Under the pieces are notes generated by a model. The model searched no databases. It saw only the letters and a program-made list of their open reading frames with translations, and was not told the DNA's origin. Shown here one piece after another: positions 1-47,645 of a stretch of 64,000 nucleotides of DNA. The first letter of the stretch is position 1, and every line of letters starts with the position of its first letter. The stretch comes from Escherichia coli (GTDB lineage Bacteria > Pseudomonadota > Gammaproteobacteria > Enterobacterales > Enterobacteriaceae): the NCBI RefSeq assembly GCF_024502345.1, contig NZ_JALDNN010000001.1; one strand, 5' to 3'. Both the position numbers and the translations under genes were made by a program.

Positions 1-1
1 T

Positions 2-214
2 ATCAATCAGTTTGATGGAGATGGTATCTATGTATTTGGTTTTGATGATAAAATTTATGTCAAACGACTGCAAATGATACCTGACAAACTACTGGTGATT
101 TCTGATAACCAGATTTACCGTGAATGGGGAATTACCAGCGAAAATGAACACCGGTTTATGGTCTTTGGAAAGGTCTTAATCAGCCAGTCACAAACCCTTA
201 AGCGACACAATTAA
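2..214 (+). CDS. Lambda CI-like repressor, C-terminal S24 peptidase domain (5' part lies outside the window)
   Basis: Frame 2 is open from the window edge to TAA at 212-214. The tail ...IYVKRLQ...FMVFGKVLISQSQ resembles the lambda CI C-terminus (FKKL Lys, VVGKVIASQ). Hairpin follows. Confidence 0.55.
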   Translation: MNQFDGDGIYVFGFDDKIYVKRLQMIPDKLLVISDNQIYREWGITSENEHRFMVFGKVLISQSQTLKRHN

Positions 215-234
215 CCCTTACCTCCTCATCAATT

Positions 235-256
235 AGCCACCCAAAGGTGGCTTTTC
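235..256. terminator. Stem-loop agccacc-caaa-ggtggct followed by a short T run; putative terminator between convergent genes
   Basis: 7-bp perfect stem with 4-nt loop read directly, 20 nt after the repressor stop codon. Confidence 0.4.
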
Positions 257-649
257 ATTACCCTTTAAATTGCATATCTCGCAACAAAAACACTTGCATA
301 ATGCGCAACTTCATTTTATCTTTCTTTCCAGACAAACAAACAAGGTACTAACAAAATTTGGTTGTAACACGGCGTATGGCACATGCGTCGTTAGCGGTCT
401 GGGGACGTTAAAGGGGACAATCCACTCCTTGCTCGGGCAAACAAACCAGGTAGCCGGAATGTGCAAGTCAATGATGATGCTGATAAGACGCCTAACCAGC
501 GTGGCGATTCGGTTTGACGCCTGGGAAGAGACCAGGGTGCAACGATGAGGGCATTTATGGAGCCGCGACAAAGTGTGGTGCCGTAACTGGCTAAGTGCTC
601 TCAGCGTTGTGGTAATCCGCGAAATGGCGCGGCGGTAAGTATGGCGGGG

Positions 650-1255
650 TTACTCTTTCCCCGTTGAGGACACCGGATTGTCAGGTTGACCATACGCCTG
701 AGTGACAACAACCAGACGATTCAGGGCAGTATCATCCGCCTTTTCCGGTAACAGCCCATGCAGGTATACAAGTCCATCCCAGCGGCTGTTTTTTGGAATT
801 GGCAGCATCGGCGCTACATAGGCCTGAAAAGCCTGGCCTGTACGTTTAGCTGCCACATGAAAGAGACGGTCAAAGTTGGTAGTGACCAATCGAAGGGCAC
901 CCTCGCGGCTACGGGCTAAACGTAACAGCGCCGCCTGAGTATCAATAGCGCCCCTACGACGGAACTTTGGCTTAAGGGCTTTTTCCAACGCGCGTCGGAC
1001 GGCTATACGCTGCCCTGGTAAGCGCCGTTCCAGCAAATCTAATGTGCCGTCAAATTGCCCACGCTCGAAAACCTCACGCTCAATTTCTGAAAGTGTTGTT
1101 CCGTTCCTCTGGTAAATTAGTTCTACCAACCCTTTGAAACCAGGTAAACCAGCAGGGTAGGAAATGCCTGCTCCACAGAAGAACACAACGCGCCCTTCCT
1201 CGTGCGCCTGCAAAAGCTCATCAGGAATATCAGGGCCGTTGGTAATGAATTGCAT
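650..1255 (-). CDS. Short SIR2-like (sirtuin-family) protein, possibly truncated
   Basis: 201-aa ORF with FFCGAGIS near the N-terminus, then VTTNFD and YLHG (SIR2-type N/D/H catalytic motifs). About 100 aa shorter than a full SIR2 domain. The same frame stays open for 113 codons beyond the TAA. Confidence 0.5.
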   Translation of the reverse strand: MQFITNGPDIPDELLQAHEEGRVVFFCGAGISYPAGLPGFKGLVELIYQRNGTTLSEIEREVFERGQFDGTLDLLERRLPGQRIAVRRALEKALKPKFRRRGAIDTQAALLRLARSREGALRLVTTNFDRLFHVAAKRTGQAFQAYVAPMLPIPKNSRWDGLVYLHGLLPEKADDTALNRLVVVTQAYGQPDNPVSSTGKE

Positions 1256-1437
1256 TCCTTTTCCTCCTATCCAATGTGCACGTTCATTCGAGTAAATGAA
1301 GGCAAGGGGTTACATCTTATTATACCGACCGTGCAAATCCGGCTTCCTAGCAAGCTACTTTACTTGCCAACTCATAATGTCCGAACTCCGAACAAAGCGG
1401 ACTGCTAGATTTGATTGCGTTCTAGCTACGCAAAATA

Positions 1438-2661
1438 TCATTTCGAGCCTAAACGAGTACAAGTAACAATCGATTCAACTCTCTCCCACCATGCCTGGTA
1501 GGCTTTACGCTGTTCTTCTAGATAATCACTCTTGTCATAAACTTGCCATACACCTGGCAGTTTATGACCGAGCATTATTTCAGCAATATGAGGCGCAGTA
1601 AGATCAGAAAAGTTTGTTCGTGCTGTTCGTCTCAAATCATGAAGAGACCAATGAGGAAATTGATACCCCAAACGCCGCCATGCGTACTGCATTAAATTGT
1701 AAGGCAGCGACTGCAATGATGTCCGACCAACTGGTTCCCTGCTTCCTTCCTTAGTAAAAAGCATATCGGAACCGTTGTTCATAGAGATAACGTATTTTAT
1801 AAGCTCTTCAACCGGTTCAATAATGGGCCGCTTTAGCGGTTCGCCTGTTATATCCCCTGTCTTATGTCGTTCTGGTGGTACAGTCCATATTTTATTAATG
1901 AAATCAAAATCGTCCACCTTGGCAGTAATTAGCTCTGAACTACGGCAACCAAAATGCAGCAATAGTTTAATGAAGGCCCGGTATTTAGGAACCATTCGAG
2001 AACCATCGATCGCAGCATAAAGGATTTTAATTTCATCATGTGTCAGAAACCGTTTCTTCTGACCTTTACGGATATCCATATCTTTACCCGTGATATCCGA
2101 CAGCGGGCGAGTTTCAATGAGCTTTCTCTTATACGCCCAGACATGGGCCTGCTTTGCGTTAATTAGCAATCGGTCTGCTATTGCTGGAGTCTTAGTGCTA
2201 AGAGGCTCCAGGACTTCTAACCAATCATGCAATGTAGCTGCATCGTGAGGGATATTCCCGATTTTAGAGAACAGGTGCAGCTCAAACGAGCGGAGTATCT
2301 GTTCAGAACCTTTTTTATTTTTTACACAATATGCTTCATACCAAGCACGGATCACAGATTCTACCGTCATGGCTTCAGTAGCTTTACGTTTTTCTGCCAG
2401 CTTGACCAATCGTGGATTGCGGTTTGACTCGAGTTCACCACGAAGACGGATAACTTCTTCTCTGGCCTCTTTTAGTCCAGTTGCCGGGTAAGTTCCGATA
2501 TCAAGACGCTCACCTTTCCCCGCCCACTGATAACGATATTGGAACACTACGCGACCTTTCGGTGATACTCTAACAGACAGACCATCACGATCGGATTTAA
2601 CCAAAACCTTATCACGTTCCTTTCCAAGGACTGAACGCAACCACGCATCAGACAGCGCCAT
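1438..2661 (-). CDS. int: P4-family tyrosine integrase (site-specific recombinase)
   Basis: 407-aa ORF with N-terminal arm-binding-like region (GLSVRVSPKGRVVFQYRYQWAGKG) and C-terminal catalytic motifs (HDLRRTARTNF, HIAEIMLGH, VYD). Confidence 0.85.
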   Translation of the reverse strand: MALSDAWLRSVLGKERDKVLVKSDRDGLSVRVSPKGRVVFQYRYQWAGKGERLDIGTYPATGLKEAREEVIRLRGELESNRNPRLVKLAEKRKATEAMTVESVIRAWYEAYCVKNKKGSEQILRSFELHLFSKIGNIPHDAATLHDWLEVLEPLSTKTPAIADRLLINAKQAHVWAYKRKLIETRPLSDITGKDMDIRKGQKKRFLTHDEIKILYAAIDGSRMVPKYRAFIKLLLHFGCRSSELITAKVDDFDFINKIWTVPPERHKTGDITGEPLKRPIIEPVEELIKYVISMNNGSDMLFTKEGSREPVGRTSLQSLPYNLMQYAWRRLGYQFPHWSLHDLRRTARTNFSDLTAPHIAEIMLGHKLPGVWQVYDKSDYLEEQRKAYQAWWERVESIVTCTRLGSK

Positions 2662-2667
2662 TACTCA

Positions 2668-2735
2668 CCTTGTACAAATAACAAAAAACCTCTGCTGTTT
2701 TGTACATTATGTACAAGCACATGTACAGATTTTTG
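2668..2735. promoter_or_regulatory. Cluster of four TGTACA-like repeats just upstream of the integrase start; candidate arm-type or operator sites
   Basis: ttgtacaaat...ttgtacatta-tgtacaagc-acatgtacag read in the AT-rich region between the integrase start and yjjG. Confidence 0.3.
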
Positions 2736-3046
2736 ATGAAAGTAACCTGATCAATTTAAAGTTACATGAAAGAATTTTCAATCAAAGAAATCACATAACA
2801 TCATGTTATTAAATGAGTTATATAATTATCACTCAATTAATCGAAAGGATTTTGAAAGAGTAAAAGAGCTTTTATTTGGGCTTAATTATTGGGGTGAGAA
2901 ATAATGGCAAAAGTGCGGCGCTTCGCCACCTCTTGCAAATAAGGAGACAACGTCATAATTCTTTCTTCTTGAGTAAGCGGCATCGCGCCGCGCTTGTTGA
3001 AAACGAAAAATTGCGGCTATTTTACCCATCAACGGGGGGGAGGCAA

Positions 3047-3724
3047 TCAGTGTTTACACAGGAGCTGCTCCAGTTCGTGCAACGAAGAAACGGTCCAGGT
3101 GGGTGCGATGCCTTCTGGTTGCTCGCGATGGTGCGCATTCAGCCAGCAGGTCGCAAGCCCGGCGTTGATGCCACCGAGAATATCGGACTCGGCAGTGTCG
3201 CCAACCATCAGCACGCGTGAACGGTCAGGATTGCCCGCCTGTTCCAGCGCATAATCGAAAATTTTCTTATTCGGTTTGGCAACGCCAACTTCTTCGGAAA
3301 TCACCAGCAAATCGAAGTAATCACGCAGGCCCGTGCGTTCCAGACGCACTTGCTGCAAGGCGCTAAAGCCGTTGGTGATGATGCCGATTTTGGCGTTGCC
3401 ACAAATGGCGTTAAGCAGAGAAACCGCGCCCGGCAGCGGCGTACAGATTTCCGCCATCGCATTAATAAAGGCTTCGTTGAGTTTACCTGGCTCGACGTTC
3501 AGCCGTTCGGCCCAGCTCTCAAACCGCCCGTGCTGAAGCTGTAATGAAGTGATCGCGCCGTTTTGATAATCCACCCACAGTGGCTTGTTAACGGCCTGAT
3601 AGTCCTGAAAATCTTCAGCGGTAAAGGTGACGCTGTAATCAAGAAACATCCGCTGCAGGCCGGTGAATGAGTCAAAGGTAAACAGCGTTTCATCGGCATC
3701 AAAGAAAATCCAGTCCCACTTCAT
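3047..3724 (-). CDS. yjjG: Pyrimidine 5'-nucleotidase YjjG (HAD superfamily)
   Basis: 225-aa [21 protein letters not shown] motif I; recognised as YjjG. Confidence 0.9.
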
Positions 3725-3738
3725 TATTCCACCTTGTA

Positions 3739-4185
3739 TTACATACTGATTGGCAACGCCATGATGATGGCGTCTTCGCGACCGTCCGTGGTGGGGTAGT
3801 AATTGCGGCGAATCGTCGCCTCGTTAAAGCCTAAACTTTCGTACAGGGCAATGGCGGCAGCATTTGAAGCACGGACTTCCAGCCATAGTGTCGCCACGCC
3901 GCGTTTTTCCAGTTCGTCGATCAGATGTTCCAGCAGCGCCCTTCCCAATCCCTGACGCTGATAGTCAGGATCGACCGCAATATTGAACAATGTAGCTTCA
4001 TCCAGCACCACTTGCGTAATCGCAAACGCCGCCATTTTGCCGTTTTGCGTTAACTGAAAGTTGAGATAACGCTCGCCCTGGTTGCTGGCAAACGTTTTTT
4101 CACTCCACGGAAAGGCGTGGGCGCGTTGTTCAATGTGGTAAGCCGCTGGTAAATCAGTCGTTTCGAGGGAAGAAATCGTGTTCAT
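3739..4185 (-). CDS. rimI: Ribosomal protein S18 alanine N-acetyltransferase
   Basis: 148-aa GNAT-family ORF ([10 protein letters not shown] motif) in the conserved rimI position. Confidence 0.9.
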
Positions 4186-4567
4186 ATGTGCAAATTTGTT
4201 GCCATAACGCGGCGCGTGCCGTTGGGTTTGCCCGTAAATCGGTGAGCGCCGGTGATGCCACCTGAGCGCCTTCCAGTGATAGCGGTTCGTCAGTACCCAA
4301 CCGCCAGCTGTTGCAGCGACTGCCTTGCGGCAGCATCGCGATTTTTTCTGGCGTCAGTTGCAGCACTTGATCGGGGCTGACGGTTAATGCGCGCAGAACA
4401 TCGCTCACTAAAGGATCAGTCAGGGCGGGAAGATCGTTTGCCACCATCACCAGACGGACGTGTGCCGGGATCGCAATGGCAATCTCCCCCTGCAACGCGC
4501 CAGGGCGACGCAGCGACCACTGGGTAATGCCCAGTTGCTGTAACTGCCAGTCTCGTCGGGATGTCAT
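4154..4567 (-). CDS. holD: DNA polymerase III psi subunit
   Basis: 137-aa ORF overlapping the rimI start, matching the holD-rimI arrangement. Confidence 0.85.
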   Translation of the reverse strand: MTSRRDWQLQQLGITQWSLRRPGALQGEIAIAIPAHVRLVMVANDLPALTDPLVSDVLRALTVSPDQVLQLTPEKIAMLPQGSRCNSWRLGTDEPLSLEGAQVASPALTDLRANPTARAALWQQICTYEHDFFPRND

Positions 4568-4669
4568 AGCGAATCGCTCCTGTTGTCAGGGGCGCAAATA
4601 TAGCAAATTCGTCGATACCGCGCCAACATATGGCTATAATCGCCGCCAGTATCAATTGAGGAGCATTCC

Positions 4670-5701
4670 ATGTCTGCATTTACCCCGGCAAGTGAAGTCT
4701 TGCTGCGTCACAGTGATGATTTCGAACAAAGCCGTATTCTGTTTGCCGGAGACTTACAGGATGACCTGCCCGCGCGTTTAGATACCGCGGCCAGCCGTGC
4801 TCATACCCAGCAATTCCACCACTGGCAGGTGTTAAGCCGCCAGATGGGGGATAACGCCCGTTTTAGTCTGGTCGCCACGGCGGATGACGTCGCAGATTGC
4901 GATACGCTGATTTACTACTGGCCGAAGAACAAACCGGAAGCCCAGTTCCAGTTGATGAATTTACTTTCTCTGCTGCCGGTGGGGACGGATATTTTTGTCG
5001 TTGGCGAGAACCGCAGCGGCGTGCGCAGCGCCGAGCAGATGCTGGCAGATTATGCGCCGTTGAATAAAGTCGACAGCGCTCGTCGCTGTGGACTCTATTT
5101 TGGTCGTCTGGAAAAACAGCCAGTATTTGATGCGGATAAATTCTGGGGCGAATACAGCGTCGATGGCCTGACGGTCAAAACGCTGCCTGGCGTGTTTAGC
5201 CGCGACGGTCTGGATGTCGGTAGCCAGTTGCTGCTCTCGACGTTAACTCCGCACACGAAAGGTAAAGTGCTGGATGTCGGCTGTGGCGCGGGTGTGCTTT
5301 CAGTTGCCTTTGCGCGCCATTCGCCGAAAATTCGTCTCACCTTGTGCGATGTCTCTGCCCCGGCGGTAGAAGCCAGCCGCGCAACACTTGCGGCCAACGG
5401 TGTTGAAGGTGAAATCTTTGCCAGCAACGTCTTTTCCGAGGTGAAAGGTCGTTTTGATATGATCATCTCCAACCCGCCGTTCCACGATGGGATGCAAACC
5501 AGCCTGGATGCGGCGCAAACGCTGATTCGCGGCGCGGTGCGTCATCTTAATAGCGGCGGCGAGCTGCGAATTGTAGCGAACGCCTTCCTGCCTTACCCGG
5601 ACGTGCTGGATGAGACATTTGGCTTCCATGAAGTTATCGCGCAAACCGGGCGCTTCAAGGTGTATCGCGCCATTATGACCCGCCAGGCGAAGAAAGGTTA
5701 A
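4670..5701 (+). CDS. rsmC: 16S rRNA (guanine1207-N2)-methyltransferase
   Basis: 343-aa ORF with SAM-binding [11 protein letters not shown] and NPPFH motifs. Confidence 0.9.
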
Positions 5702-5714
5702 TTATCTCGCCGAA

Positions 5715-5850
<136 letters not shown>

Positions 5851-5968
5851 TCCTGATGGACATTTTTCCAGCAATTACACATCAGGCGATAATTAACTAT
5901 TGACGAAAAGCTGAAAACCACTAGAATGCGCCTCCGTGGTAGCAATTCTTTTTAAGAATTGATGGTAT

Positions 5969-6055
5969 GCGAAGGTGGCGGAATTGGTAGACGCGCTAGC
6001 TTCAGGTGTTAGTGTCCTTACGGACGTGGGGGTTCAAGTCCCCCCCCTCGCACCA
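5969..6055 (+). tRNA. leuQ: tRNA-Leu (anticodon CAG)
   Basis: 87-nt sequence gcgaaggtggcggaattggtagacgcg...tcgcacca with CAG anticodon loop and long variable arm; first of three tandem copies. Confidence 0.9.
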
Positions 6056-6083
6056 AAAACCACGTTGATATTGCTCGCACTGG

Positions 6084-6170
6084 GCGAAGGTGGCGGAATT
6101 GGTAGACGCGCTAGCTTCAGGTGTTAGTGTTCTTACGGACGTGGGGGTTCAAGTCCCCCCCCTCGCACCA
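6084..6170 (+). tRNA. leuP: tRNA-Leu (anticodon CAG)
   Basis: Second tandem copy; differs from copies 1 and 3 by one base (tgttctt vs tgtcctt) in the variable region. Confidence 0.9.
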
Positions 6171-6204
6171 AACGAGGCGATATCAAAAAAAGTAAGATGA
6201 CTGT

Positions 6205-6291
6205 GCGAAGGTGGCGGAATTGGTAGACGCGCTAGCTTCAGGTGTTAGTGTCCTTACGGACGTGGGGGTTCAAGTCCCCCCCCTCGCACCA
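6205..6291 (+). tRNA. leuV: tRNA-Leu (anticodon CAG)
   Basis: Third tandem copy, identical to copy 1. Confidence 0.9.
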
Positions 6292-6329
6292 ATTATCTTT
6301 ACTTCCTTTCTTGTTTCTTCCCTGTTTTG

Positions 6330-6566
6330 TCATCCCTGATTCAAATTCATTATCATCAGCATGATGCCAGCAATAAGCGCCAGGCACGATGGTAGCAAAA
6401 TGTAATGCCGCAACTGTTTGTGATACAGCATCACCGGCGTCAATACTAATCCCATCAGAATTACAATCCGCCACTGATCCGGCGATAAATCCGCATACAT
6501 CAGCCCTGCAATCAGCAATCCCGGCAGCAACACTCCCCAGCCACTGCCCAGCGTACGTTGCAACAT
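6330..6566 (-). CDS. yjjZ: Small membrane protein YjjZ
   Basis: 78-aa hydrophobic product from the internal Met (MLQRTLGSGWGVLLPGLLIAG...) of the 115-aa track ORF, in the fhuF-leuV gap. Confidence 0.55.
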   Translation of the reverse strand: MLQRTLGSGWGVLLPGLLIAGLMYADLSPDQWRIVILMGLVLTPVMLYHKQLRHYILLPSCLALIAGIMLMIMNLNQG

Positions 6567-6706
6567 GGTTTCATCTCTTTCATTGATAATGATAACCAAT
6601 ATCATATGATAATTCTTATCATTTGCAAGCCAGAGAAATCCCTTGCTATCGGGTAAACCTATCGCTAGGATTAGCAATCATTATCATTTAGATTACTATC
6701 CCGATT

Positions 6707-7495
6707 ATGGCCTATCGTTCCGCACCGCTCTATGAAGATGTCATCTGGCGAACACATCTCCAGCCGCAGGATGCTGGGCTTGCACAAGCCGTACGGGCGA
6801 TGATCGCCAAACATCGTGAACATTTGCTCGAGTTTATCCGCCTGGATGAACCCGCTCCGCTTAACGCCATGACGCTGGCGCAATGGTCATCACCGAATGC
6901 GCTAAGTTCTCTACTGGCGGTCTATTCCGATCATATCTATCGCAACCAACCAACGATGATCCGCGAGAACAAACCGCTGATCTCACTATGGGCACAATGG
7001 TATATCGGCCTGATGGTGCCACCATTAATGCTGGCGCTACTGACGCAGGAAAAGGCATTAGATGTGTCGCCGGAACATTTCCATGCTGAGTTTCACGAAA
7101 CCGGACGCGTCGCCTGTTTCTGGGTCGATGTGTGTGAAGATAAAAACGCAACACCACATTCGCCGCAGCATCGAATGGAAACGTTAATCAGCCAGGCGCT
7201 GGTTCCGGTTGTGCAAGCACTAGAAGCGACCGGAGAGATCAACGGCAAACTTATCTGGAGTAATACCGGTTATTTGATCAACTGGTATCTCACTGAGATG
7301 AAGCAACTGCTCGGCGAGGCTACTGTTGAATCGCTGCGTCATGCCCTCTTTTTTGAGAAAACGCTCACGAACGGTGAAGATAATCCACTCTGGCGTACCG
7401 TGGTGCTACGCGACGGCCTGCTGGTGCGCCGCACTTGCTGCCAGCGTTATCGCTTACCGGATGTGCAGCAATGTGGCGATTGTACGCTGAAATGA
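6707..7495 (+). CDS. fhuF: Ferric-siderophore reductase FhuF
   Basis: 262-aa ORF ending in the 2Fe-2S Cys cluster CCQRYRLPDVQQCGDC. Confidence 0.9.
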   Translation: MAYRSAPLYEDVIWRTHLQPQDAGLAQAVRAMIAKHREHLLEFIRLDEPAPLNAMTLAQWSSPNALSSLLAVYSDHIYRNQPTMIRENKPLISLWAQWYIGLMVPPLMLALLTQEKALDVSPEHFHAEFHETGRVACFWVDVCEDKNATPHSPQHRMETLISQALVPVVQALEATGEINGKLIWSNTGYLINWYLTEMKQLLGEATVESLRHALFFEKTLTNGEDNPLWRTVVLRDGLLVRRTCCQRYRLPDVQQCGDCTLK

Positions 7496-11507: not shown

Positions 11508-11971
11508 TCGAATTTCTGTTAGCGTTGGCGCAGGATATGATCCTCGCCGCCATTCCTGCGGTCGGCTTTGCGATGGTGTTCAACGTTCCCGTGCGGGCGT
11601 TACGCTGGTGTGCGCTGCTTGGCTCGATAGGTCATGGTTCCCGAATGATCTTGATGACCAGCGGGTTGAATATTGAGTGGTCAACCTTTATGGCTTCGAT
11701 GCTGGTCGGTACCATTGGTATTCAATGGTCGCGCTGGTATCTGGCGCATCCGAAAGTGTTTACCGTGGCGGCCGTTATCCCTATGTTCCCGGGCATATCG
11801 GCTTATACCGCAATGATTTCGGCGGTAAAAATCAGCCAGTTAGGTTACAGCGAACCGTTGATGATTACCCTGTTAACCAACTTTCTTACAGCTTCATCGA
11901 TTGTTGGTGCGTTATCCATCGGTCTTTCCATTCCTGGATTATGGTTGTACCGCAAGCGCCCTCGCGTATAA
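11498..11971 (+). CDS. yjjB: Inner-membrane protein YjjB (DUF3815)
   Basis: 157-aa hydrophobic ORF overlapping the yjjP stop. Confidence 0.8.
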
Positions 11972-12077
11972 AATTGCCTCGCTTAAGCACACGGATGAGA
12001 GACAGCCTCCTCTCCTCCGTGTGTTACTATAAAAGTTATCTCCCTTCTCGTTCATCGTTCCATATTTGAGAAACAGT

Positions 12078-12617
12078 ATGTCTTCCAGAGTTTTGACCCC
12101 GGACGTCGTTGGTATTGACGCCCTGGTACACGATCACCAAACCGTTCTGGCAAAAGCTGAAGGCGGTGTGGTTGCCGTATTTGCTAACAATGCCCCGGCG
12201 TTTTATGCCGTCACGCCTGCACGCCTGGCTGAACTGCTGGCGCTGGAAGAAAAGCTGGCGCGTCCGGGAAGCGATGTCGATCTGGACGATCAACTCTATC
12301 AGGAACCGCAAGCCGCTCCCGTTGCTGTACCCATGGGGAAATTCGCCATGTATCCGGACTGGCAACCCGATGCCGACTTTATCCGCCTGGCGGCGCTATG
12401 GGGCGTGGCGCTAAGAGAGCCGGTGACCACCGAAGAACTGGCCTCATTCATTGCCTACTGGCAGGCGGAAGGTAAAGTCTTTCACCATGTGCAGTGGCAA
12501 CAAAAACTGGCGCGCAGCCTGCAAATCGGTCGTGCCAGCAACGGCGGACTGCCGAAACGAGATGTGAATACGGTCAGCGAACCTGACAGCCAAATTCCAC
12601 CAGGATTCAGAGGGTAA
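12078..12617 (+). CDS. dnaT: Primosomal protein DnaT
   Basis: 179 aa from [17 protein letters not shown]...; directly precedes dnaC. Confidence 0.9.
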
Positions 12618-43111: not shown

Positions 43112-44385
43112 TGGCAGGGTTAAATAAATATCAGGCGTATCCGGAGTATAGGGATTCTGGGGTGGAGTGGTTGGGGGAGATTCCTGCTCATTGGGAAACG
43201 TTACAGCATAAATACGTCGCATATTATACTAAGGGCAAAAATCCTTCTTTTTTGCTCGATACCCCAACAAAGAACACCCTACCTTATCTTTCTATGGATT
43301 GTTTAAGAAATAACTCCATAGATAAATATGCTATAGTATCTAATGATATTCGTATTGCATTAGAGGGACAACCACTTATTATTTGGGATGGTTCTAATGC
43401 TGGGGAATTTGTCAAAGGCCGAAAAGGTATTTTATCCTCAACGATGGCCTCTGCAACGCTTAATTATCCTTTGCACATGCAATATTACTGGTATTTATGC
43501 ACTGCAATTGAATCTGAAATGCGTAAACATGCAAATGGTATGGGTATCCCTCATGTAAATGGAGAAGAATTAAAGAACATTCATCTAAGTATCCCTTCAA
43601 TAACCGAACAAAAAAGCATCGCTGGTTTTCTTGAATTTGAAACAACGAAAATTTCGAACCTTATAGAAAAACAACAACAACTAATTGAATTACTAAAAGA
43701 AAAACGTCAGGTCGTGATTAGCCATGCGGTCACAAAAGGGCTAAATCCTGACGTGCCGATGAAAGATTCTGGGGTTAAGTGGTTGGGGGAAGTTCCAAAA
43801 CACTGGCACATATGCAAGTTAAAATGGTTTGCTAATTTGAAAAGTGGTGATTTTATAACCAGCAATTCAATAGAACCAGAAGGAAACTATCCTGTATATG
43901 GTGGAAATGGATTAAGAGGATATTATTCTTATTTTACACACAATGGTGAATATGTTCTTATTGGTAGACAAGGTGCTCTTTGCGGAAATATAAATTACGC
44001 AATTGGAAAGTTTTGGGCTTCAGAACATGCTGTTGTTGTCACCCCAAACGAAAGAGCTGTTACAATATGGTTAGGAGAATTATTAAGAATAATGAACTTA
44101 AACCAATATTCAGTTTCTGCTGCACAACCGGGGCTTGCGGTTGAAAGAATTACTGATTTATATATTCCAATCCCACCATATCAAGAGCAAATAAATATCG
44201 GAACTTATATATCTAAATATATTTCTCTAGATAAAAAATTGATTGAGCATAGTACAGATAATATTGAACTCCTCAAAGAACGCCGCACCGCCCTTATCTC
44301 CGCCGCCGTCACCGGCAAAATTGATCTACGCAACTGGACCGCGCCCATCCCCGAAGCGGAAACACCCACGGAGGCCAGCGCATGA
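43111..44385 (+). CDS. hsdS: Type I restriction-modification specificity subunit
   Basis: 424-aa ORF with internal duplication (RDSGVEWLGEIPAHWE / KDSGVKWLGEVPKHWH; LIELLKEKRQVVIS / NIELLKERRTALIS) and two AT-rich target-recognition domains; start overlaps the hsdM stop. Confidence 0.85.
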   Translation: MAGLNKYQAYPEYRDSGVEWLGEIPAHWETLQHKYVAYYTKGKNPSFLLDTPTKNTLPYLSMDCLRNNSIDKYAIVSNDIRIALEGQPLIIWDGSNAGEFVKGRKGILSSTMASATLNYPLHMQYYWYLCTAIESEMRKHANGMGIPHVNGEELKNIHLSIPSITEQKSIAGFLEFETTKISNLIEKQQQLIELLKEKRQVVISHAVTKGLNPDVPMKDSGVKWLGEVPKHWHICKLKWFANLKSGDFITSNSIEPEGNYPVYGGNGLRGYYSYFTHNGEYVLIGRQGALCGNINYAIGKFWASEHAVVVTPNERAVTIWLGELLRIMNLNQYSVSAAQPGLAVERITDLYIPIPPYQEQINIGTYISKYISLDKKLIEHSTDNIELLKERRTALISAAVTGKIDLRNWTAPIPEAETPTEASA

Positions 44386-47300
44386 GCCACGACATTACAA
44401 AAGAGGTTAACCTGCAAAACGACATCATCGCGCAGATGGTGGAAAAAGGCTGGATTGTCGGCAAAGGTGACGGCTACGACCGGGAACGTGCGCTATACGC
44501 ACAGGATACCTTAAACTTCGTGCAGACCACTCAAACGCAGGAGTGGGAGAAATTCGCCCGCGTTTACCCTAACGACCCAGAGCGCCATTTCCTCGACGCG
44601 CTGGTCGCGCAGCTTAAAAAAGCCGACAGCAACGCCACCGATATCCAGTCGCGCACCTGGGGTACGCTCGGCGTACTTCGCCACGGTCTGAAAATCCGCA
44701 ATGCCCGTTTTTCGCTGTGCCAGTTTAAACCGGAACACAACCTCAACCCGGAAACGCTGGCGCGCTATCAGCAAAATATCTGCCGTATCGTGCCGGAACT
44801 GGTCTACAGCCCTTATGCCTCAAATAGCGTCTTTGCAGAAACGGGCGTGAAAGCCAAAAAATGGCGCATCGACCTTGTGCTGTTTATCAACGGCCTGCCA
44901 ATTGCCACGCTGGAGCTGAAATCCGAATTTAAACAGGCGGTGCAGAACGCCATTGCGCAGTACAAAAAGACCCGCCTGCCGAAAGATCCCGCTACCAATA
45001 AACCTGAACCGCTGCTGGCCTTTAAGCGCGGGGCGCTGGTGCATTTTGCCGTCAGCCAGTATGACGTCTTTATGACCACCAAACTCGCAGGTGACAGCAC
45101 CTTCTTCCTGCCGTTTAACAAAGGCACCAAAGAAGGCGGTGCAGGCAATGAGATCCCCGAAGATACTCGCCGCTACGCCACCGATTATCTGTGGAATGAA
45201 GTGCTGCTGCCGGACAACTTATTAAAAATCCTCGCCAGTTTTGTCCATTTGCAGATTGAAGAAAAAGAGGAGTGGAACGGGCTGAAAGCGAAGAAAGAGA
45301 GCCTGATTTTCCCGCGCTATCACCAGTGGGATGTGGTCAACAAACTGCTGGAGGCTGCGACGGTCGAAGACACCGGCCATAAATACCTGATTCAGCACAG
45401 CGCAGGTTCCGGAAAGTCGAACTCCATTGCCTGGACCGCCCACCAGCTCTCTCGTCTGTACGACGCAAACGGGGAAAAACAGTTCCACTCCGTTATCGTG
45501 GTGACAGACCGCACGGTGCTGGACGACCAGCTTCAGGACACCATCTGGCAGTTCGAACATGCCGACGGCGTGGTCGGGCGCATCAATAACAGAGAGGGCG
45601 ACGGCTCTAAATCGGAAAAGCTCGCCAACGCGCTGGAAAACTCGCAACCGATTATTATTGTCACCATCCAGACGTTCCCGTTCGTATTGAAAGCTATCGA
45701 AAACAGTGTCAGCCTGAAGCAGCGTAAATACGCGGTAATCGCCGATGAAGCGCACTCCTCGCAGAGCGGTTCTACCGCCCGTCAGCTCAAAGAAGTGCTG
45801 ATGAGCGAAGAGATGGATGATGACGTGGTACTGTCGTCAGAAGATATTCTGGATGCGACCATCGCCGCACGGAAAGGTAGCAGTAACCTGAACTACTATG
45901 CCTTTACCGCCACGCCCAAATCCAAAACCCTGGAACTTTTTGGTCGCCGTCCACGTCCCGATGAACCGGCGTCAAAAACCAATAAACCTGAGGCCTTCCA
46001 CGTCTACTCCATGCGCCAGGCAATCGAAGAAGGCTTTATCCTCGACGTGCTGAAAAACTACACCAACTACAAAGTGGCGTATCAGTTGCTGCAAAAGCTG
46101 GAAGATGAAGACCGCGAAGTCGATAGCAAACGGGCGAAGGTAAAACTCAATCAGTGGGTGACACTGCACGACCACAATATCTCGCAGAAGGTGAAGGTGA
46201 TTGTGGAGCACTTCCGCAAACATGTGATGCATCTGCTTGGCGGCCAGGCTAAAGCGATGGTGGTCACCAGTTCACGCAAAGCCGCCGTGCGCTATAAGCT
46301 GGCATTTGATAAATACATTAGCGAGAACAATTACCAGAAAATCAGCGCGATGGTGGCGTTTTCCGGGGAAGTTGAATTCCGGGAAGGCGACCCTAACAGC
46401 CTGGCATTGTTAAACCAGAAATTTACTGAAATAAACATGAACCCCGGCCTGAAAGGACGGGATATGCGCAAAGCCTTCGACAGCGACGATTACCAAGTCA
46501 TGCTGGTCGCCAATAAATTCCAGACCGGTTTTGACCAGCCGAAGCTGTGCGCGATGTACGTGGATAAAGCCCTCGGCGGCGTCGAGTGTGTGCAGACGCT
46601 CTCCCGCCTGAACCGCACCTATCCGGGCAAAGCGGAATCTGGCACTTTTGTCCTCGATTTTTATAATGATCCGGACGAGATCCTCGGCGCATTCCAGCCC
46701 TATTTCCAGACGGCGGAACTGACCGATGTCAGCGATCCGCAGCAGGTATTCGATCTGTTTGAAAAACTGCGCGCCACGCAGATTTTTCAGTGGCATGAAG
46801 TCGAGCAGTTCTGCGAGGCATACTTCATCAAAAATAAATCGAATGCGGCGATCAGTAATATTTGCAAACCGGCGGTCGAACGCTGGAAAAAGCGTTATCT
46901 GATGGCGATAGACGCCTATTTGACCGCCAAAGAGATGTTCGAGCGCACCAAAAAAACGGGCGATACAGTATTAATCACCAATGCGGAAAACAGTTTTAAA
47001 GCCTGTAAGCAGGAGAAAGATCGTCTGGAAATATTCAAAAAAGATCTCGGCAGCTTTGTTCGTTTTTATGAATTTATGTCGCAGATCGTTGAATACGATG
47101 ACAAGGATCTGGAAAAGCTAAGCCTGTTTGCTCGTCATCTGCGTCCGCTGCTGCATGAGCAACGTCTGGAAGATGATGAAATTGATCTCAGTAATGTGGA
47201 GATGAGTCACTATCGTTTATCGAAAATCCATGAGCAAGATTTACGCTTACAGGAAGAAACGCCTGACTATACGCTGGATGCAAGTAATAATATTGGTACG

Positions 47301-47645
47301 GCAAAAGCGAAAGATAAAAAAGAGGAGTTTTTATCTCAGGTGCTTTCTCGGATGAATGAATTATTCATTAGTGACCATTTGACCGACAAAGATATGATCA
47401 GCAATGCTTTTTCGGTGTATAACAAAATAACTGAAAATGAAAATGTTATGACACAAATTAAAAACAATCCCCCAGAACAAGCGATTCTTGGTGATTTCCT
47501 CCAGGCAGTTGATAATGCTGTAATGGACAGTAATGACGCTCGGCAAGAATTCATGTTGCAATATTTATCCGATCCAGCTCGGGCAAAGGGCTTTGCTTAT
47601 CTGATGTTTGATATGCTAACGGGGAAAATTGCTTTGCCAACATAA
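44382..47645 (+). CDS. hsdR: Type I restriction endonuclease subunit (SF2 helicase/nuclease)
   Basis: 1087-aa ORF with helicase motif I SAGSGKSNS and motif II IADEAHSSQ; ATGA overlap with hsdS. Confidence 0.85.
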   Translation: MSHDITKEVNLQNDIIAQMVEKGWIVGKGDGYDRERALYAQDTLNFVQTTQTQEWEKFARVYPNDPERHFLDALVAQLKKADSNATDIQSRTWGTLGVLRHGLKIRNARFSLCQFKPEHNLNPETLARYQQNICRIVPELVYSPYASNSVFAETGVKAKKWRIDLVLFINGLPIATLELKSEFKQAVQNAIAQYKKTRLPKDPATNKPEPLLAFKRGALVHFAVSQYDVFMTTKLAGDSTFFLPFNKGTKEGGAGNEIPEDTRRYATDYLWNEVLLPDNLLKILASFVHLQIEEKEEWNGLKAKKESLIFPRYHQWDVVNKLLEAATVEDTGHKYLIQHSAGSGKSNSIAWTAHQLSRLYDANGEKQFHSVIVVTDRTVLDDQLQDTIWQFEHADGVVGRINNREGDGSKSEKLANALENSQPIIIVTIQTFPFVLKAIENSVSLKQRKYAVIADEAHSSQSGSTARQLKEVLMSEEMDDDVVLSSEDILDATIAARKGSSNLNYYAFTATPKSKTLELFGRRPRPDEPASKTNKPEAFHVYSMRQAIEEGFILDVLKNYTNYKVAYQLLQKLEDEDREVDSKRAKVKLNQWVTLHDHNISQKVKVIVEHFRKHVMHLLGGQAKAMVVTSSRKAAVRYKLAFDKYISENNYQKISAMVAFSGEVEFREGDPNSLALLNQKFTEINMNPGLKGRDMRKAFDSDDYQVMLVANKFQTGFDQPKLCAMYVDKALGGVECVQTLSRLNRTYPGKAESGTFVLDFYNDPDEILGAFQPYFQTAELTDVSDPQQVFDLFEKLRATQIFQWHEVEQFCEAYFIKNKSNAAISNICKPAVERWKKRYLMAIDAYLTAKEMFERTKKTGDTVLITNAENSFKACKQEKDRLEIFKKDLGSFVRFYEFMSQIVEYDDKDLEKLSLFARHLRPLLHEQRLEDDEIDLSNVEMSHYRLSKIHEQDLRLQEETPDYTLDASNNIGTAKAKDKKEEFLSQVLSRMNELFISDHLTDKDMISNAFSVYNKITENENVMTQIKNNPPEQAILGDFLQAVDNAVMDSNDARQEFMLQYLSDPARAKGFAYLMFDMLTGKIALPT

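Follow-up and report, generated by a model that had tools for sequence, protein, structure and literature searches.

A 201-codon SIR2-like frame beside a prophage integrase in Escherichia coli is very probably a deletion remnant of the anti-phage gene dsr1

The window that we analyzed, a stretch of 64,000 nucleotides of Escherichia coli DNA (RefSeq assembly GCF_024502345.1, contig NZ_JALDNN010000001.1), holds only the attL end of a prophage. Beyond the prophage, the chromosome resumes with yjjG (3047..3724, minus strand), which appears in the list of open reading frames (ORFs) and is annotated as yjjG at the intact locus of E. coli PAR (L001). Next to it lies a displaced 5' fragment of prfC of 23 codons (2888..2956, minus strand), an incomplete coding sequence in L001, L002, and L011 to L013, which marks attL. 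Based on the N terminus of E. coli K-12 prfC and the gene order, we take the product of this fragment to be the N terminus of PrfC, which places the prophage in the 5' end of that gene. The tyrosine integrase (1438..2661, minus strand; 407 amino acids; Arm-DNA-bind_3, Phage_int_M, and Phage_integrase domains; PHROG 1, E = 5e-75) is read inward from attL, and the first gene downstream, in the same direction, is the ORF studied here (650..1255, minus strand), to which the ORF list and its translation assign 201 codons and an ATG start. A first-pass annotation had placed this ORF directly after the integrase of a mobile element, and that placement holds, with only a 182-bp spacer (1256..1437, minus strand) between the two genes. 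The spacer is native dsr1 upstream DNA, unchanged (100% identity) from that of genomes in which dsr1 is intact, so that transcription of the remnant may persist; a simple scan of window positions 200 to 1500 gave no match to the sigma-70 consensus.

On its other side, the ORF runs into what remains of the spacer between the repressor gene and yfdP (215..706), yfdP itself being deleted. This DNA is common to lambdoid phages and 100% identical to L001 positions 11793 to 12287; it also has 95 to 100% identity to phages mEp460 and cdtI and to Stx2c-converting phages, and parts of window positions 1 to 720 match about 4,500 of the 5,426 complete E. coli genomes. A terminator-like hairpin is present on the repressor side (235 to 252), and two ORFs of about 90 amino acids each (270 to 548, plus strand, and 311 to 571, minus strand) overlap on opposite strands; a PHROG search assigned neither of them to a family, and we regard both as ORFs that arose by chance in non-coding phage DNA. 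The window opens in the 3' end of a cI-like repressor gene (1..214, plus strand; XRE and S24 peptidase; PHROG 6201, "CI-like repressor," E = 5.6e-23) that is cut by the window edge. Matching genomes annotate it as an XRE family regulator, and the Pfam domain Peptidase_S24 was found in loci L003 to L010.

The ORF carries the SIR2 motifs FFCGAGIS (amino acids 25 to 32), VTTNFD (124 to 129), and YLHG (164 to 167), and its residues G28, G30, N127, D129, and H166 are invariant across 80 Dsr1 family sequences. Pfam SIR2_2 (PF13289), the profile suggested earlier as a check, gave the partial match expected of a SIR2-like product (E = 3.7e-6, model positions 3 to 63 of 141). The PADLOC Dsr1 profile (PDLC02183) matched with an E value of 5e-119, residues 1 to 189 corresponding to positions 1 to 189 of 1275; the NCBIfam equivalog NF041818 ("anti-phage defense-associated sirtuin Dsr1," 1263 positions) matched over positions 1 to 189 with 333.4 bits (E = 2.9e-99); and PHROG 15208 again covered positions 1 to 189 of 1275. 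The agreement of the three libraries identifies the ORF as the first seventh of a far longer protein. Its NF041818 score lies well under the curated cutoff of 1400 bits, which excludes it from full-length membership, while the intact orthologue, Dsr1 of PAR, scores 2056 bits over positions 1 to 1263. The ORF thus has the N-terminal SIR2 domain of Dsr1, and its GAG loop and catalytic Asn/Asp/His trio are those that the first-pass annotation had noted from the motifs. With the invariant residues, Pfam, and the three libraries in agreement, the kinship of the ORF to SIR2 is, by sequence comparison, far above chance.

When window positions 1 to 1440 were compared by megablast with the 5,426 complete E. 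coli genomes, two separate blocks emerged. The block at 707 to 1440 is 100% identical to genomes where this DNA is annotated as dsr1 ("anti-phage defense-associated sirtuin") next to an integrase, the block at 1 to 709 is 100% identical to DNA beside an "XRE family transcriptional regulator," and the two blocks are joined in none of the 5,426 complete RefSeq E. coli genomes. In E. coli PAR, whose intact locus was our reference for the junction and whose Dsr1 has 1275 amino acids (WP_094058333.1), the blocks are separated by 6.8 kb. The genes of the PAR locus run in the order yjjG, the prfC 5' fragment, int, dsr1, two DUF551 genes (one annotated yfdS), yfdR, yfdQ, and yfdP, and beyond yfdP follow a 702-bp spacer, the XRE/S24 repressor gene, a cro-like gene, and ymfL, with genes for a Q-type antiterminator, a holin, and a lysozyme further on. 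Window positions 707..5707 align with L001 5020..20 and positions 1..709 with L001 12501..11793, with an overlap of 3 bp, and 6775 bp are absent from the window relative to PAR.

The junction (707..709) reads ...GAGTGAC-AAC-AACCAGACG..., and AAC is found at both breakpoints of the intact prophage, a 3-bp microhomology from which we infer that the deletion arose by microhomology-mediated illegitimate recombination. The break follows dsr1 codon 183. Positions 707..1255 (minus strand) are dsr1 codons 1 to 183, which encode the N-terminal 60% or so of the SIR2 NADase domain with GAGIS, TTNFD, and the catalytic His166; positions 650..706 (minus strand) are 18 unrelated codons and a stop in prophage intergenic DNA colinear with the yfdP-repressor spacer of L001. 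Residues 1 to 183 differ from PAR Dsr1 at a single position (F98 versus L98), and residues 184 to 201 differ at 17 of 18 positions, G189 alone matching by chance. Besides the rest of dsr1, the deletion took five early-left prophage genes (two DUF551 genes, yfdR, yfdQ, and yfdP) and ended about 210 bp upstream of yfdP. Neither Dsr1 residues 190 to 1275 nor the deleted 6.8 kb had a match elsewhere in the window when we checked for rearrangement. The shared locus and the colinearity with intact dsr1 make the ORF orthologous to that gene by descent. Comparison with the orthologous island had been named as a test of the ORF's nature, and it identifies a dsr1 fragment left by a deletion of 6775 bp relative to PAR; of the two options in the first-pass annotation, a truncated remnant or a minimal effector, the mapped junction bears out the former.

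The so-called 315-aa read-through frame has a stop at codon 202 and its next stop at codon 315. Past codon 183, it is translated prophage intergenic DNA without similarity to Dsr1 or SIR2, and a read-through product is meaningless. A scan of window positions 1 to 3000 against Rfam (E ≤ 0.01) gave no match, so the open frame is not accounted for by a known RNA element.

The truncated allele is recurrent. The exact 201-amino-acid protein occurs on 78 contigs, including one of 4.74 Mb, and it already has entries in NCBI, for example KUH05635.1, under the label "SIR2 family protein." The identical 61-nt junction was found in all eight loci inspected (L003 to L010), which come from separate NCBI isolate assemblies and gut metagenomes (ENA). 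In all eight, the prophage has also lost a further internal segment of about 5.3 kb (L001 13641 to 18911), again with a 3-nt overlap, and with it the 3' end of ymfL, replication and nin-region genes, a methyltransferase gene, rusA, kilA-N, and DUF968. This deletion sits at about 6392 to 6394 in these loci, to the left of window coordinate 1 and hence outside the window, and its presence in every carrier indicates that the prophage is defective. Compared with the window, the eight loci have 0 or 1 mismatches in the prophage part and up to 31 in 5.3 kb of chromosomal flank (yjjG to rsmC), and variation within the remnant is zero. Diverged flanks around a near-invariant prophage part indicate that the allele has lasted or has passed from one background to another.

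Since there is no solved structure of Dsr1, residues 1 to 350 of the PAR protein were modeled with AlphaFold2 from an alignment of 80 family members obtained in a search of 1.84 billion representatives (mean pLDDT, 95.6; pTM, 0.93). In the PDB, the model best matches the SIR2 NADase domains of ThsA, KomC, and DSR2 (Foldseek probability, 1.00; about 290 to 300 aligned columns); a PDB sequence search with full-length Dsr1 found only a weak match to KomC (E = 2e-4). The sheet is formed by strands at residues 23 to 27, 121 to 125, 145 to 147, 161 to 164, 210 to 214, 243 to 249, and 267 to 272, of which the remnant retains the first four; the last three and the intervening helices are gone. Structure prediction had been suggested for the 201- and 315-residue products and was run instead on the parental domain, where a break at residue 183 costs three of the seven strands. 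The modeled SIR2 fold extends to about residue 300, which means that about 120 residues of the domain are missing from the ORF. The earlier estimate of about 100 was therefore roughly right for the domain, but about 950 further residues of the parent, including the tetratricopeptide repeat (TPR) sensor, are wholly absent as well. Residues 1 to 350 contain 29 invariant columns, 16 of them past residue 183; among the latter are F213, G215, Y216, and D220, which align to the "IGYS..D" segment in the known structure of the KomC NADase. The ORF thus has neither the complete seven-stranded Rossmann fold of SIR2, with its GYS..D motif at about residues 215 to 220, nor a C-terminal TPR sensor fused in the same polypeptide, as none of Dsr1 190 to 1275 is in the window. 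Among the best 150 representatives of the family, most are about 1200 to 1300 amino acids long and the shorter ones range from 225 to about 1070, with no recurrent class of about 200 amino acids.

DSR1 has been described as a single-gene system that depletes NAD+ on infection and blocks phage replication (10.1101/2021.12.14.472415), and dsr1 of E. coli ECOR17, with 300 bp of native upstream DNA, shields MG1655 from T4 lacking nrdC.5 (PMC9391042). The sensor of EcDsr1 is a bilobed TPR domain also present in Avs7, its trigger is a phage major capsid protein, and disruption of the N-terminal effector abolishes both trigger-induced toxicity and defense (PMC12803255, a 2026 preprint).

In our view, the ORF is very probably a pseudogene, the remnant of dsr1 after a deletion in a decaying lambdoid prophage. 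The ancestral state would have been a lambdoid prophage in the 5' end of prfC with dsr1 as cargo directly downstream of the integrase, an arrangement still found in about 70 complete genomes besides that of E. coli PAR. The parental Dsr1 of 1275 amino acids, with a SIR2 NADase effector at about residues 1 to 300 and a large C-terminal TPR sensor, hydrolyzes NAD+ when it senses a phage protein and blocks phage replication. In the lineage of the window, illegitimate recombination at the 3-bp microhomology would then have removed 6775 bp, from dsr1 codon 183 to upstream of yfdP, after which translation would continue for 18 codons into non-coding DNA before a stop. The product retains the glycine loop for NAD binding and the Asn/Asp/His trio of the catalytic site; lacking three Rossmann strands, the GYS..D motif, and the sensor, it would be expected neither to fold into an active NADase nor to sense phage. 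What this analysis shows directly is the homology, the junction, which structural elements are gone, and that the allele recurs; from the incomplete effector fold and the absent sensor, we infer that NADase activity is lost and the remnant inactive. Judged from the sequence and the model, the 201-amino-acid product most likely has no defense function.

A somewhat different outcome would be a truncated protein that is expressed and has taken a secondary role, either as a dominant-negative partner or decoy against full-length SIR2 proteins or as an NAD-binding regulator. The start and the upstream region are intact, the latter with the same sequence as in complete dsr1, so the cell may still make a shortened polypeptide, probably an unstable one. 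The allele also recurs without change where the chromosomal flanks have diverged, as well as in several metagenomes, and SIR2 defense domains oligomerize, the PDB matches including DSR2 tetramers and the helical assemblies of ThsA and KomC. However, a protein with only half a Rossmann fold would probably be insoluble, a prophage allele of recent origin would account for the invariance equally well, and the neighboring prophage is decaying through other deletions. We regard such a role as very unlikely, and the fuller claim that a half-SIR2 product is expressed and retained for its function, for example in poisoning full-length SIR2 oligomers or sequestering NAD, as extremely so. If true, it would represent a naturally arisen anti-defense or regulatory fragment.

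The other option raised in the first-pass annotation, a minimal stand-alone SIR2 effector with its sensor partner outside the window, has in its favor the retained GAGIS loop and N/D/H residues and the fact that several SIR2 systems consist of two genes, such as SIR2-HerA and SIR2/pAgo (10.1101/2021.12.14.472415). The intact orthologue, however, is a single gene for 1275 amino acids, and the identity to it stops exactly at the deletion junction, the last 18 residues being read from intergenic DNA. The ORF lacks three Rossmann strands and 16 invariant residues, the genes past the junction encode a repressor, a cro-like protein, and an antiterminator and not a sensor, and the best 150 representatives hold no recurrent class of this length; an effector of this kind is scarcely credible. 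That the truncation is an assembly or sequencing artifact in a genome with intact dsr1 has a negligible probability, since the junction, although seen in 0 of the 5,426 complete RefSeq E. coli genomes, recurs over 61 nt in eight of eight independently assembled loci and the exact protein lies on 78 contigs, one of 4.74 Mb.

The practical consequence of a dsr1 remnant is one of annotation: the ORF should be labeled a dsr1 pseudogene fragment and not a SIR2 defense gene, and the strain should be scored as Dsr1 negative. This dsr1 was found in 75 of the 5,426 complete E. coli genomes, 72 of them with at least 80% of the gene, and other disrupted alleles exist. In 2013C-4974, dsr1 is truncated to 540 amino acids in an IS3-linked event, in CUVET18-789 it is interrupted by IS1203, and in OkiPb01713 a deletion fuses dsr1 nucleotide 2206 to a gene of the DUF2303 family (yfdQ-like); all three are independent of the disruption in the window. 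The remnant is thus a clean, base-resolved case of the loss of a prophage-borne defense gene, through a microhomology deletion here and through IS insertion in other strains, and this is consistent with the known rapid turnover of defense cargo. Beyond correct annotation, its significance is small.

The slot that dsr1 occupied is a more useful lead than the ORF itself, though an indirect one. The integrase at the prfC site is present in 700 of the 5,426 complete E. coli genomes and dsr1 in only 75, and conserved integrase and early-left genes enclose a strain-variable segment, as in a lambdoid cargo or moron slot. The earlier idea of an integrase-proximal cargo hotspot is therefore supported as to variability, with three other cargos seen, but not as to its setting in a P4-like element. 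At the position of window coordinates 650 to 1437 or thereabouts, L011 has a gene for a hypothetical protein of 413 amino acids (5564 to 6805, minus strand) and L012 a pair encoding 436 and 81 amino acids (5263 to 6811, plus strand), and the slot of L013 (5066 to 6930, plus strand) holds a restriction endonuclease gene and one for a 249-amino-acid protein with a weak HEPN-like match. PADLOC gave no solid match to the slot cargo of these three sampled genomes, which may consist of uncharacterized defense genes. Downstream of prfC-type integrases, hundreds of E. coli genomes carry varied and mostly uncharacterized genes that could be mined for defense candidates.

Elsewhere in the window, a 638-amino-acid protein (38565 to 40481, minus strand) matches the PADLOC models Orf5 (PDLC02693, E = 7e-217), HEC-06, and type IV methyl-directed restriction endonuclease, which suggests a putative restriction enzyme of the GmrSD/DUF262 type beside a type I restriction-modification locus. 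The operon at 40757 to 47645 (plus strand) encodes M (784 amino acids; PDLC03029, E = 8.5e-280), S (424 amino acids), and R (1087 amino acids) subunits, with a moderate match of R to known HsdR models (TIGR00348, 181 bits against a cutoff of 284.55 bits). Three tandem tRNA-Leu(CAG) genes (5969 to 6291, plus strand) adjoin rsmC; we take them to be the leuQPV cluster of E. coli K-12, an ordinary chromosomal context that confirms the E. coli backbone.

Three known systems can be compared with the locus. In P4-like satellites, which the first-pass annotation had invoked for the position of the ORF, the hotspot is by definition the interval from psu to int (Rousset et al. 2022, PMC9122126). The likeness is that of variable cargo, SIR2 proteins included, beside a tyrosine integrase that carries an arm-binding domain at its N terminus. 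The element itself is not P4-like: psu, sid, delta, and alpha are not annotated in the intact relative L001, whose genes include those for cI/cro-like proteins, a Q antiterminator, a holin, and a lysozyme. It is a lambdoid prophage at prfC, and its cargo is flanked by early-left genes (DUF551, yfdS to yfdP). The modeled parental N-terminal domain shares its fold with DSR2, ThsA, and KomC (PDB 8wyc, 8btp/7uxt, and 8zsf; E values of about 1e-10) and the catalytic Asn and His are conserved, but identity is 14 to 20%, the sensor or regulatory modules are different, and the remnant corresponds to the first four of the seven strands. The closest relative is Dsr1 of PAR. Although the remnant amounts to only 14% of that protein, the C-terminal half of the SIR2 domain and the remaining 950 or so amino acids with the TPR sensor being gone, it shares with it residues 1 to 183 with one substitution, the integrase, the upstream spacer, and the prfC site.
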